Source of the DNA: a virus
Taxonomy: Duplodnaviria; Heunggongvirae; Uroviricota; Caudoviricetes
DNA: 64,000 nucleotides
IMG/VR virus record: IMGVR_UViG_2718217715_000005
Strand: one strand, 5' to 3'
Part shown: positions 54,001 to 57,000 of the stretch, piece by piece
Layout: each line of letters begins with the position of its first letter
Numbering within the stretch: the stretch's first letter is position 1
Position numbers: made by a program

Positions 54001-57000
54001 GTAAACTGTCAGTACCGGATTCTTATCCGTGTCCGGCGCACGACCACACGTGACAGCGTGTTGGTCTCCATTTTTAACCCAGAACCTCAATGGAGGATAA
54101 AATGCCAAACAAAAAAAGAAATCCGCTTATTGAAAAACAGATTGAATGCCTGGTAAATCAACTCAGGCAATCAGGGTTATTAAAAACTCATTCAGAGTTG
54201 AGGCTCACAGAATCAGCATTCGACGATAAATTAAATAATGTCCTTTATAATGGCATTATTGATTTTAATCGTTCTGTTGGTCGCCGCGGCCCTGCTGGTG
54301 TTTCCTTATAATTACCAGTCAATCCAGAGTGGACCGTGTTCAGCGTAAATATAACTGTACACATCCAGATTATATTTGTGGTCTGTTAAGAACAGGCCGC
54401 AAATACATGCCGAAGCTTCCAGTGCAGCGGCTCTGTTACTGAATAACCATGTAGCAACATTCCAGCGTTTTTCTGCATCCCAGTCTTTCTCAAGGCCTGA
54501 TACCATGAAGAAACCGTTAGTGTTGCCATCAAATAATTCTGTTTCCAAATTTTTAAGCAATGCCTGATGGACTCTTGCCAGGTATTCCGCCGGAATTTCG
54601 CCACGAATTCTGATGAGATTGTCATAAACAAACATGTTCCCCGCATATGGCGATTTTTCTTTCTTGTTTTTTAAACCAGCATCATGAGCAAACTGATCAA
54701 TTTCTTCTTCCGTTGGTTTCGTATTGATGTTTTGCGCTGTCGTTTCTGCAATTTTATTTGCCACACTCTCTGAGTCGTGTTTATTTATAGACGCACAGAA
54801 ATACAATCCGGTAAACGCATCGCGCACATTACGAGCCATATTATCAGTGTCTTTTTTCGTTACCGATTCCAATTCAAGTTCGTTCAGACGATGACGAAGT
54901 GTGTGTGCTGCAATCTCCTGGATTGAAGGAGGTAAATCTTTAAATTCCATCGTCAACCTCATCAGTCAGTGTTTCTGGCTAACCAGCGACGCGCGCCAGC
55001 TTCAGTTTTAAACGTTTTGCTTTTGGTATACGTCATCGCGGTGAACGTACCGTCCTGGTTGGGGAACACGCCACATACCAGAGATTCGTTGTTGCCAAGA
55101 TTGAGCGTATCCATGTTGACCTCATTTCCCCTTAACGCCGGGGTAGCGGAACAAAAACCTGCTGCATAGTTATTAAAGTTGAACCCTGCCGTCATGTTCT
55201 TACGCCTCGGGCTGGCTACTTAACCCCTGACCACTGCCTGGTAACTCGAAGTATTGCCCTGCATTCTGTGGGGCGGGGTGAGGGAATGAATGAAGTTTAG
55301 AAAAACGAACATTTAAGGTCAATGTTTTTTTATCAAAACATTTTAAGCAGGCAGCTGTTACGCCATCACTACGATGGCATACAGTTAATCAAATAGATGA
55401 GGTTGGTTAAATATCTTGTTGAATTTTAAAGCATACTCCCAATATGCAAGATAGATCATCCAGCATAATTGAAGGGTAGCGAGGATTCGTGGGGACTAAA
55501 AGAATATCCGGCCCTTCTATCTCCAGTTTGCGAATGACAGGCGTTGTGGTCCCTTTGGGTAAGGCAAGGACAATATTTCCTGGTTGTACGATTCGATCGG
55601 GATCAACAAAAACTGTTGAACCATTTGGGATGGAAACTCCACCACCAGATGTCGACATACTGTCACTCTCTAGAACAACAGCAAAGGTATTGGCCGGGAT
55701 TTCTCCGACAAGCTGCACACAAGAGGTTATTGAGGAATTTTTCATATAATCACTCCAGCTTGCTGCCTGCTGAAGTGATAGTAGCGGAACCGTTTTTATC
55801 GGCGGTAAAGATAGATCAAGCGAATCACCTGTATTTAACTCTCCTCCATTAAGAAGCCAATTTTCGTTTACTTTCAATATCTTTGCCAGTGAACTTATGT
55901 AACGCGAGGACGGCGCTCCTCCACCGTTCATCCATTGACTTACGGAGCCTTTTGATGCGCCAGTGGCATTGACAAGGTCTTTGCCTTTCAAGTTTAGCGC
56001 ATGCATACGTTGGGTTATGCGTTCAGATATTGTTTGCTTGTTCATGTTTTGATTTTAAAACACAGATGGTTTTGTTTCTTGACTTTCTTTGGTTTTGATT
56101 ATTAAACTTTTGGCGTTCAGTTTTATGGAGCGACTCATGAAAAAATCAGAAGTATTAGGCTATTTTGGCGGAGTTGTTAAAACAGCCGCCGCTCTAGGAA
56201 CGTCAAAAACCACAGTCAGCATGTGGGGGGAAGACGTTCCGTGGAAATGGGCGTTGCTAATTCAGGCAGTCACTGCCGGGGCGCTCAAATATGAGTTACA
56301 CATACCGACGGTTGTCATTCCCGATTCTGATCATAATCCGCCTTCTAACCAAGGGGGGATTCATGAAAATCAAGCATGAACACATCCGCATGGCGATGAA
56401 TGCCTGGGCGCGTCCTGATGGCGAAAAAGTTCCGGCAGCTGGAATAACCCAGGCTTATTTTGAGTTGGGTATGACGTTTCCTGAACTGTACGACGACAGC
56501 CATCCGGAAGCCCTGGCTCGCAATACCCAGAAAATTTTCCGCTGGATAGAGAAAGACACCCCTGATGCAGTTGAAAAAATGCAGGCTCTGTTACCGGCGA
56601 TCGAAAAGGCAATGCCGCCTCTGCTGGTGGCCCGTATGCGCAGTCACAGCTCTGAATATTACCGTGAGATCGTCGAACGGAGGGATCGGCTGGTGAAAGA
56701 TGTGGATGATTTTGTCGCAGCGGCGATCGCCTGGGGCACCCTGACTAACAGTGGGGGTCAGCCTGGTAATGCTGTTGTCGTGCATTGACCAACAATATTC
56801 ATGCCGGATTTCTTCCGGATGTTCGAGGGTAAAGTTCGGTATCAGAAGAGGTGAGTATGGCTAATGCCTGGCTCAGATTGTGGCATGACATGCCAAATGA
56901 CCCCAAGTGGCGAACGATTGCCAGGGTATCAGGACAGCCAATCGCAACAGTGATGGCAGTGTATATCCATCTTCTGGTGAGCGCGTCACGAAATGTCACG

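Follow-up and report, generated by a model that had tools for sequence, protein, structure and literature searches.

The window analysed here, 64,000 nucleotides (nt) from a virus of the class Caudoviricetes (IMG/VR record IMGVR_UViG_2718217715_000005), holds the tandem prophages Sp12 (prophage A) and Sp11 (prophage B) of E. coli O157 Sakai. Our subject is two open reading frames (ORFs) of prophage B, of 50 and 212 amino acids (aa), which a sequence-only reading of the window had placed in a slot equivalent to that of rexA and rexB in lambda and had proposed as an undescribed defence or exclusion module. We consider it very likely that they open an early-left operon of the Qin dicBF type, which is under CI control and belongs to the defective lambdoid prophage Sp11. 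This high confidence covers the whole anatomy described below: the identity of the operon, the N-terminal module that its second gene shares with others, the co-occurrence of the C-terminal domain of the 212-aa protein with a 69-aa protein, and the placement of a 0.93-kb cassette in a hypervariable slot.

The early-left operon of prophage B

The region corresponds to ECs_2209 to ECs_2216 of Sp11, which is lambda-like in the Sakai annotation, and the locus is 100% identical to one in O157:H7 TR01, where PGAP calls the same two ORFs. Pfam and Rfam searches give the gene order repressor, pL, ydfA, a second gene X, dicF, dicB, a ydfD-like gene and recE. The order in K-12 Qin matches, with dicA followed by ydfA-ydfB-ydfC-dicF-dicB-ydfD-ydfE, and there ydfABC-dicF-dicB-ydfDE is a single transcript from a repressor-controlled promoter upstream of ydfA (PMC5069750; PMC10448788). 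Expression of dicBF is highly toxic and is tightly repressed (PMC5069750).

At the head of the locus lies a CI-like repressor gene (55407..56045, minus strand; 212 aa; ECs_2209), in which Pfam finds HTH_3 (2e-4) and Peptidase_S24 (8e-13), and both ORFs do lie directly downstream of it on the minus strand, as the sequence-only reading had it. The pL-like promoter and conserved leader described in that reading were likewise recovered. The former is a putative sigma-70 (dicBp-like) promoter, TTGACC-17-TAAACT, on the minus strand at 55322..55294 (9/12 matches in a consensus scan), and the latter an early-left leader on the same strand (55125..55280) that is 97% identical to positions 5168-5323 of prophage A. 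An operator-like 19-bp palindrome, ATGTTTTTTTATCAAAACA (55322..55340), abuts the -35 hexamer, and palindromes of this type recur at 56044-56062 and 56092-56107, between cI and a divergent cro-like gene. From this arrangement, which is the pattern expected for OL and OR operators, we infer that the pL-like site is under repressor control. PGAP and the Sakai annotation give the repressor only 112 aa ('LexA family protein', ECs_2209; locus L001, 10808-11146); this public start is probably too far downstream, and the uninterrupted ORF encodes 212 aa with both the HTH and the S24 domains.

The 50-aa ORF (54962..55114, minus strand; ECs_2210) is ydfA, the conserved opening gene of dicBF operons. It matches Pfam DUF1391 (YdfA) with E=1.2e-29 and 102 bits against a cut-off of 27.3, and PGAP annotates it as WP_000380316.1, "DUF1391 family protein", so the earlier statement that neither protein resembles a known family was mistaken for this one. 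An in-frame upstream ATG at 55195 would lengthen YdfA to 77 aa (extension 55115-55195). The long form is used by phrog_751 and in Sakai (ECs_2210) and the form of about 50 aa by PGAP and in K-12, and the extension is retained in prophage A despite loss of the ydfA core.

Downstream of the 212-aa gene, and on the same strand, follow the conserved DicF upstream leader (53764-54042), the small RNA DicF (53712..53763; Rfam RF00039, 75 bits against a gathering threshold of 48), the cell division inhibitor gene dicB (53349..53537; Pfam DicB 2.7e-36, also called by PGAP), a ydfD-like gene (53164..53352; DUF1482, Pfam 2.9e-15) and a truncated recE (51923..53071; Pfam Exonuc_VIII), a pseudogene according to PGAP and the Sakai annotation, which marks the end of the early-left operon of this defective prophage. 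Sp11 is defective in other respects as well, with integrase and exonuclease pseudogenes and with insertion sequence (IS) insertions.

By blastn, homology between prophage B and K-12 is limited to 55152-54971 (ydfA, 88% nucleotide identity) and 54042-53433 (from the dicF leader through dicB; 93% over 614 bp in the dicF region). Between these blocks, 928 bp without K-12 Qin homology (54970-54043) stand in place of ydfB and ydfC, neither of which was found in prophage B by tblastn and blastn with the K-12 genes. The locus has ydfA as the first gene behind promoter and operator motifs, and DicF with its leader, then dicB and ydfD; what it does not have of a dicBF operon is ydfB and ydfC between ydfA and dicF.

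In lambda, rexA and rexB are flanked by cI and pL, and in the lysogen they share a transcript with cI. The slot in prophage B was correctly described as CI-adjacent and as lying behind a pL-like promoter and leader, but the equivalence with rexAB fails because the two ORFs are downstream of an operator-flanked pL-like promoter, where lambda has N. The cI stop (55407) is just 85 bp away from the -35 hexamer, and the rex-like slot of prophage B is therefore empty. No similarity to RexA or RexB appeared in a Pfam scan at E<=0.1, in which the 212-aa protein had no family and the 50-aa protein none but DUF1391.

The 212-aa protein and its convergent partner

The 212-aa gene (54312..54950, minus strand; WP_000394548.1, ECs_2211, 'Ybl81') starts with MEFKDL at 54950, a start on which all homologues, the PHROG profile and PGAP agree and which has a GAGG Shine-Dalgarno (SD) sequence and lies 11 nt past the ydfA stop. 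The stop/start overlap with ydfA that had been reported exists only for an alternative ATG at 54962 (216 aa); the supported start does not overlap. In the encoded protein a linker joins an N-terminal module of about 57 aa (54950-54780) to a C-terminal alpha/beta domain at about aa 98-200 (about 54659-54350); the protein matches phrog_2151 with 1.9e-147 over 212/212 positions, a family annotated as 'unknown function'. The ratio of nonsynonymous to synonymous substitution rates (dN/dS) is about 0.32 against a 70%-identical homologue, indicating purifying selection, and this together with the PGAP annotation bears out that the 50-aa and 212-aa ORFs are real genes.

The 212-aa protein had also been called uncharacterised, and rightly so. 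Neither it nor the 69-aa protein introduced below has a match in Pfam, NCBIfam or PADLOC, and our literature searches on ybl81, the WP accessions, DUF1391 and ECs2210-2212 returned nothing relevant. A profile search of the PDB gave neither of them a significant match (Noc appeared with E=0.1), structure comparison gave no informative fold match, and no enzymatic or membrane motifs were seen. PADLOC-DB v2, which covers systems up to 2023, had nothing for the 212-aa ORF, the 50/77-aa ORF, the 69-aa ORF or a 36-aa ORF considered further on. Sequence comparison also dismissed the idea that K-12 YdfB and YdfC are fragments of the 212-aa protein.

A hidden Markov model (HMM) search of 1.84 billion representative proteins returned only 55 matches to the 212-aa protein, about 45 of which share just the N-terminal ~55 aa (MEFKDLP..IQE.AA...) and have diverse C-termini. 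This N-module is common to the second gene of most such operons. In the same search the C-terminal domain was found outside the family in only two proteins, both of Salmonella elements, P0154 (220 aa) and P0144 (286 aa), whose genes are each second in an early operon, after Cox. P0144 combines a different N-terminal domain with an XRE helix-turn-helix (Pfam HTH_3) and the C-domain; its HTH is 41% identical over 68 aa to the DNA-binding domain of the CI in the window, and its C-domain occupies the place where CI has the S24 oligomerisation and cleavage domain. The N-module (~55-86 aa) also opens a 147-aa early-left protein of Shiga toxin (Stx)-converting phages (L003, 5001-5444; gp25 of phage PA2; about 70 Stx phages), whose gene is flanked by recombination genes and a PAPS-reductase-like gene. 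As judged by sequence similarity, the module is shared among early accessory proteins beyond dicBF operons.

Facing the 212-aa gene is a gene that the sequence-only reading missed. It encodes 69 aa on the plus strand (54102..54311; WP_001133037.1, ECs_2212), and its stop codon abuts that of the 212-aa gene. The two-gene module proposed earlier was misdrawn in this respect: ydfA belongs to the operon, and the partner of the 212-aa gene is the 69-aa reverse gene. The small protein matches phrog_4274 (1.4e-51 over 69/69 positions; 'unknown function') and its gene is under purifying selection (dN/dS 0.19-0.26). Its AlphaFold2 model (predicted local distance difference test score, pLDDT, 83) is a helical hairpin of two helices with a disordered conserved tail, RRGPAGVxL. 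We considered a ribbon-helix-helix DNA binder and set it aside, with no N-terminal strand conserved or predicted. Codons 3-5 of the gene form an A7 tract (54108-54114), at which two IMG/VR loci, L040 and L081, carry a frameshift in a sequence that is elsewhere 98% identical; either an error of sequencing or on/off switching by strand slippage could account for it.

The association of the two genes holds across a wide range of contexts. The 212-aa gene (at >=80% coverage) is present in 597 of 5426 complete E. coli genomes, and so is the 69-aa gene in 597; the equal counts, compared as totals and not genome by genome, suggest that both genes are in the same genomes, most of which belong to the Shiga toxin-producing E. 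coli (STEC) serogroups O157, O121, O145, O111 and O103. Both genes occur together in 10/10 intact IMG/VR examples, and they abut in O157 and in Escherichia sp. E4742, as well as in a Salmonella element of quite another make-up, with the order int, Mu-type repressor, HTH_35, 106 aa, 200 aa and then the 69-aa gene facing back. The genes of P0144 and P0154 are overlapped at their 3' ends by a convergent ORF of 64 to 69 aa homologous to the small protein of the window, with the shared motif QIEC..QL..SGLLK..S.L...E..F..KL...RRGPAGVxL. The pairing persists, then, for homologues below ~30% identity, with other N-terminal architectures and on other mobile elements. The small-protein family comprises 50 clusters, from Escherichia or Salmonella only, and every context examined has a convergent C-domain protein. 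The cassette was not found on plasmids, nor the full-length cassette in deposited phage genomes.

A strongly hydrophobic ORF of 36 aa on the plus strand (MSFIMALLILIVLLVAAALLVFPYNYQ..., 54238-54348) shares the 3' end of the 69-aa gene, read in a different frame, and extends beyond it as antisense to the 212-aa gene. We considered a type I toxin and rejected it: the ORF is partly retained in L004 and L008 but missing from two remote loci, L011 and L014, and is probably an artefact of the reading frame.

The reverse leader and the hypervariable slot

Upstream of the 69-aa gene, folding and alignments delimit a leader on the plus strand (54002..54101). It comprises a -10-like hexamer, TAAACT (54002-54007), and three hairpins, HP1 (54012-54039), HP2 (54042-54066) and HP3, in which an anti-SD element CUCCAU (54066-54071) pairs with AUGGAG (54090-54095) over the GGAGG Shine-Dalgarno sequence. 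HP3 is predicted to mask the ribosome-binding site of the reverse gene. The three hairpins are common to 11 leaders from divergent loci. HP1 has the form GCCGGAU...GUGUCCGGC, with a U-G pair in 10/11 sequences, and folding on the plus strand is therefore favoured; HP2 varies in sequence among loci and is constant in position; HP3 occurs with CUCCAU or CUCCU as anti-SD and AUGGAG or AGGAG opposite. Folding z-scores are about -2.9 in three divergent loci, and RNAalifold on the 11 leaders finds HP1 and HP3 again, including a single compensatory pair. In most loci HP1 is preceded, at a distance of 7-9 nt, by a -10-like hexamer (TAAACT here; TATAAC, TATAGG or TATATC with an upstream TG elsewhere). 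A terminator scan found none between the convergent genes.

K-12 Qin and prophage A retain HP1, HP2 and the anti-SD half, and have the forward gene ydfC there and no reverse gene. HP1 and HP2 (54012-54066 in the window; about 5045-5110 in the K-12 locus, L002) are kept there with no reverse gene downstream, and they may have a second role, whether as part of the opposite-strand dicF precursor or as an inverted repeat, GCCGGA-N13-TCCGGC, to which a protein binds.

The sequence-only reading had suggested a survey of the genes lying in this position in related prophages. We carried it out between the repressor-side ydfA and DicF in 80 IMG/VR loci encoding YdfA at >=90% identity, and found hypervariable content. 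Between the ydfA stop and DicF lie 203 to 2130 nt, in some ten length classes. The second gene mostly has the same N-module, with at least six different C-termini, and 37 loci have the leader with a reverse ORF, these ORFs belonging to at least seven unrelated families (64, 69, 92, 91, 100, 57 and 73 aa). Another 18 loci, and K-12 Qin, keep HP1/HP2 without a reverse ORF. The description of a variable cargo slot was accurate, as was the statement that prophage A has other genes at this position: there the ydfA core is deleted, and a 118-aa ORF (4907-5263, minus strand) with a nested, opposite 68-aa zinc-ribbon-like ORF (4922-5128, plus strand) is followed by ydfC (4617..4835).

Forward C-termini and reverse cargos are not strictly matched one to one. 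The 133-aa C-type occurs with either of two cargos, and the 'EKYF' C-type with two different cargos or none, which weakens a polymorphic toxin-immunity logic for the slot as a whole. Seven alternative cargo proteins, taken from five of the reverse-ORF families and from three other reverse ORFs, gave no credible match in Pfam or PADLOC (E >=0.005 only); the PADLOC matches were marginal (E 0.013-0.033, 9.5-12.7 bits) and were taken as chance. Five of these proteins fall in PHROGs of unknown function and two have no PHROG. The slot also hosts reverse-oriented predicted membrane proteins of 148 aa (L089, 4252-4698) and 106 aa (L046, 4395-4715) and, in L039 and L062, a coiled-coil and zinc-ribbon protein of about 190 aa, with no credible Pfam or PADLOC match for either kind of occupant (E >=0.005 only).

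The operon type and YdfA are already known, and databases list the cassette proteins only as hypothetical; the literature searched seems to contain no description of the pairing, the leader or the hotspot. Elsewhere in the window lie two DicF RNAs (4223-4274 and 53712-53763, the latter that of prophage B), two sok antitoxin RNAs of hok/sok loci (11120-11294, 60973-61147), two ALIL pseudoknots (19904-20020, 51474-51590), which are IS3-family frameshift signals of IS629-type insertions, and three phage tRNA genes (14210-14456).

Possible roles of the pair and comparison with known systems

The overall explanation that we favour, giving it a little less than an even chance, is that this conserved convergent pair within a dicBF operon acts as a reciprocally expressed cognate pair. 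The mechanism proposed for it, with cognate partners, reciprocal expression and regulation by partner binding, is put forward more tentatively. The 212-aa protein would be made only after inactivation of the repressor, whose S24 domain would be SOS-cleavable, with pL firing thereafter. The 69-aa protein would be made from its own opposite-facing leader, its translation gated by the hairpin that masks the ribosome-binding site, and would bind the C-domain and so antagonise or modulate the 212-aa protein. Because transcription is convergent and no terminator separates the genes, the two transcripts would be mutually antisense, and strong transcription from pL would silence the small gene, and vice versa. 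The cassette would then be an accessory control device of the early operon that might gate derepression events, including read-through to DicF and DicB. We suggest, with low confidence, that the C-domain has a regulatory, partner-binding role; a regulatory module is favoured over an enzyme or toxin because the domain is fused to a CI-type HTH in P0144, because the modelled fold places it with small sandwich domains that serve regulation or oligomerisation, and because its genes always lie early, after the genetic switch.

Several observations weigh against this explanation. The small gene is frameshifted in the Salmonella loci L006 and L007 with the large gene kept, is internally deleted in L062 and is frameshifted at the A7 tract in L040 and L081; from such losses it follows that the small protein is not indispensable as long as pL is kept repressed. 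Adjacent overlapping genes are trivially co-inherited over short distances, so that only the remote homologues carry weight. A strict scan found no consensus promoter for the reverse gene, its sole match overlapping the start codon. The structure model of the 212-aa protein is only moderate (pLDDT 68), which makes the argument from its fold weak, and the interaction of the 69-aa protein with the C-domain is itself a prediction.

The main alternative is an effector-immunity or exclusion pair. In this adjusted form of the idea put forward in the sequence-only reading, the cassette is a defence, exclusion or abortive-infection module, in which the 69-aa protein would be expressed in the lysogen and the 212-aa protein would serve as sensor or effector, set free once an incoming phage or a stress derepresses pL. 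A defence or exclusion function is possible, and we regard this version of it as unlikely yet deserving of attention. It would suit a hypervariable hotspot adjoining the immunity region, a narrow and mosaic distribution, and the toxin-antitoxin pair held by the true post-repressor slot of prophage A; at least seven unrelated families of reverse ORF on one conserved leader, with two predicted membrane proteins elsewhere in the slot, are what one sees with morons expressed in the lysogen. A product of the same type of operon, DicB, shields K-12 from infection by lambda-like phages (PMC6832061). However, neither protein and none of the alternative cargos has a PADLOC match beyond chance, and no enzymatic or membrane motifs were seen; the 212-aa gene lies behind a repressed pL-like promoter and is therefore not expected to be expressed in the resting lysogen, and the ribosome-binding site of the small gene is predicted to be sequestered. 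The absence of the cassette from sequenced free phages suits decaying prophages no less than defence.

Another possibility is that the two genes are unrelated neighbours, the 212-aa protein being an ordinary early-lytic host-takeover or recombination-accessory protein and the 69-aa gene an independent moron, joined by linkage only. The N-module does occur in Stx-phage early-left proteins beside recombination genes, and C-terminus and cargo assort partly independently in other variants of the slot, but an association that is seen in all ten intact IMG/VR examples and that holds below ~30% identity, in other architectures and on other mobile elements makes this quite unlikely. That the cassette works chiefly through transcription, with reverse RNA polymerase opposing pL and damping leak into dicF-dicB-ydfD and with the proteins secondary, we find more improbable again. 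Convergent genes without an intervening terminator, set exactly between pL-ydfA and the dicF leader of a highly toxic and tightly repressed operon (PMC5069750), and a reverse leader that is conserved while its cargo varies would all be in keeping with such a device. Purifying selection on the 69-aa ORF and the C-domain, and co-occurrence at deep divergence and outside dicF elements, would be unexpected if only transcription mattered, and HP1/HP2 are kept in K-12 Qin and 18 other loci that have no reverse ORF. Finally, the genes could be decaying, non-functional remnants of a defective prophage, as the pseudogenes and IS insertions of Sp11 and the frameshifted or deleted copies of the small gene might suggest; with dN/dS well below 1 for both genes, intact copies in 597 genomes and across Escherichia and Salmonella, and a conserved leader structure, we give this hardly any credence.

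New here are the membership of the 212-aa gene in a conserved cassette of two convergent genes that brings a structured leader with it, and a hotspot of at least seven interchangeable, uncharacterised reverse genes in prophages of the major lineages of enterohaemorrhagic E. coli (EHEC; O157, O121, O145, O111, O103). Any pL transcript that yields DicF or DicB from Sp11 must traverse the cassette, and the cassette could thereby influence both the expression of EHEC virulence genes, on which DicF acts, and susceptibility to phages, on which DicB acts. It is a compact candidate for a new prophage control element or exclusion system. A bolder proposal, which we think improbable, is that the slot in EHEC and Salmonella prophages is an undescribed cargo platform, on which a conserved reverse leader that masks the ribosome-binding site expresses interchangeable small proteins in the lysogen, and that the 212/69 pair is a two-component system of a new kind, be it an effector-immunity pair with an anti-phage or abortive action or an accessory lysis-lysogeny switch. 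If so, the C-domain would be a fold, with a small antagonist, without known relatives, and the pair, being placed directly upstream of DicF, could set the level of this virulence-modulating small RNA in EHEC.

Pore-forming colicin operons consist of an SOS-induced colicin gene, a convergent and constitutive immunity gene and then a lysis gene. The likeness of prophage B to them in gene arrangement lies in the promoter repressed by a LexA-like protein, the modular protein with constant N-terminus and variable C-terminus, the small convergent gene and the lysis gene (ydfD-like) downstream. The differences are that there is no similarity in sequence or fold, that the 69-aa protein is not a membrane protein, that the cargos are not matched one to one, and that nothing suggests export.

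Lysogen-expressed moron and defence cassettes near immunity regions include sieB of P22 and lambda, BstA of BTP1 and the defence genes of cluster N mycobacteriophages. Like these, the cassette is variable, narrowly distributed, immunity-adjacent and partly oriented against the operon; unlike them, it has no homology to such systems and no PADLOC match, and its expression in the lysogen is only putative. Like lambda rexA-rexB, the 50-aa and 212-aa genes are same-strand accessory cargo next to the immunity repressor; they differ in lying downstream of a pL-like promoter and operator and have no Pfam similarity but DUF1391.

Prophage A has cargo of another kind after its repressor. A ParE toxin gene (5559..5933, minus strand; Pfam 4.8e-16) and a PaaA2 antitoxin gene (5839..6084, minus strand; 1.7e-19) lie directly downstream of a repressor-like gene (6051..6485), and the trio (5559-6485 in the window) looks like a PaaR-PaaA-ParE three-component toxin-antitoxin system in a genuine rex-like slot. 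The PaaR2-PaaA2-ParE2 system resembles the cassette as accessory cargo directly after a prophage repressor-like gene in O157 prophages. It differs in having co-directional genes in an operon with their regulator and recognisable families, of which the cassette has none; nor is the cassette built like a type II toxin-antitoxin system, whose two genes run in the same direction in one operon and whose proteins show a known toxin or antitoxin fold or family.

Also close is the dicBF operon of K-12 Qin. The repressor here is of the CI/LexA type with an S24 domain, whereas K-12 has DicA; the cassette takes the place of ydfB and ydfC; and K-12, which lacks a reverse gene, still has HP1, HP2 and the anti-SD half. 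In the rest the two share their architecture, with ydfA, the dicF leader, DicF, dicB and the ydfD-like gene at 88-93% nucleotide identity, and a repressor-controlled promoter at the head of the operon (PMC10448788).

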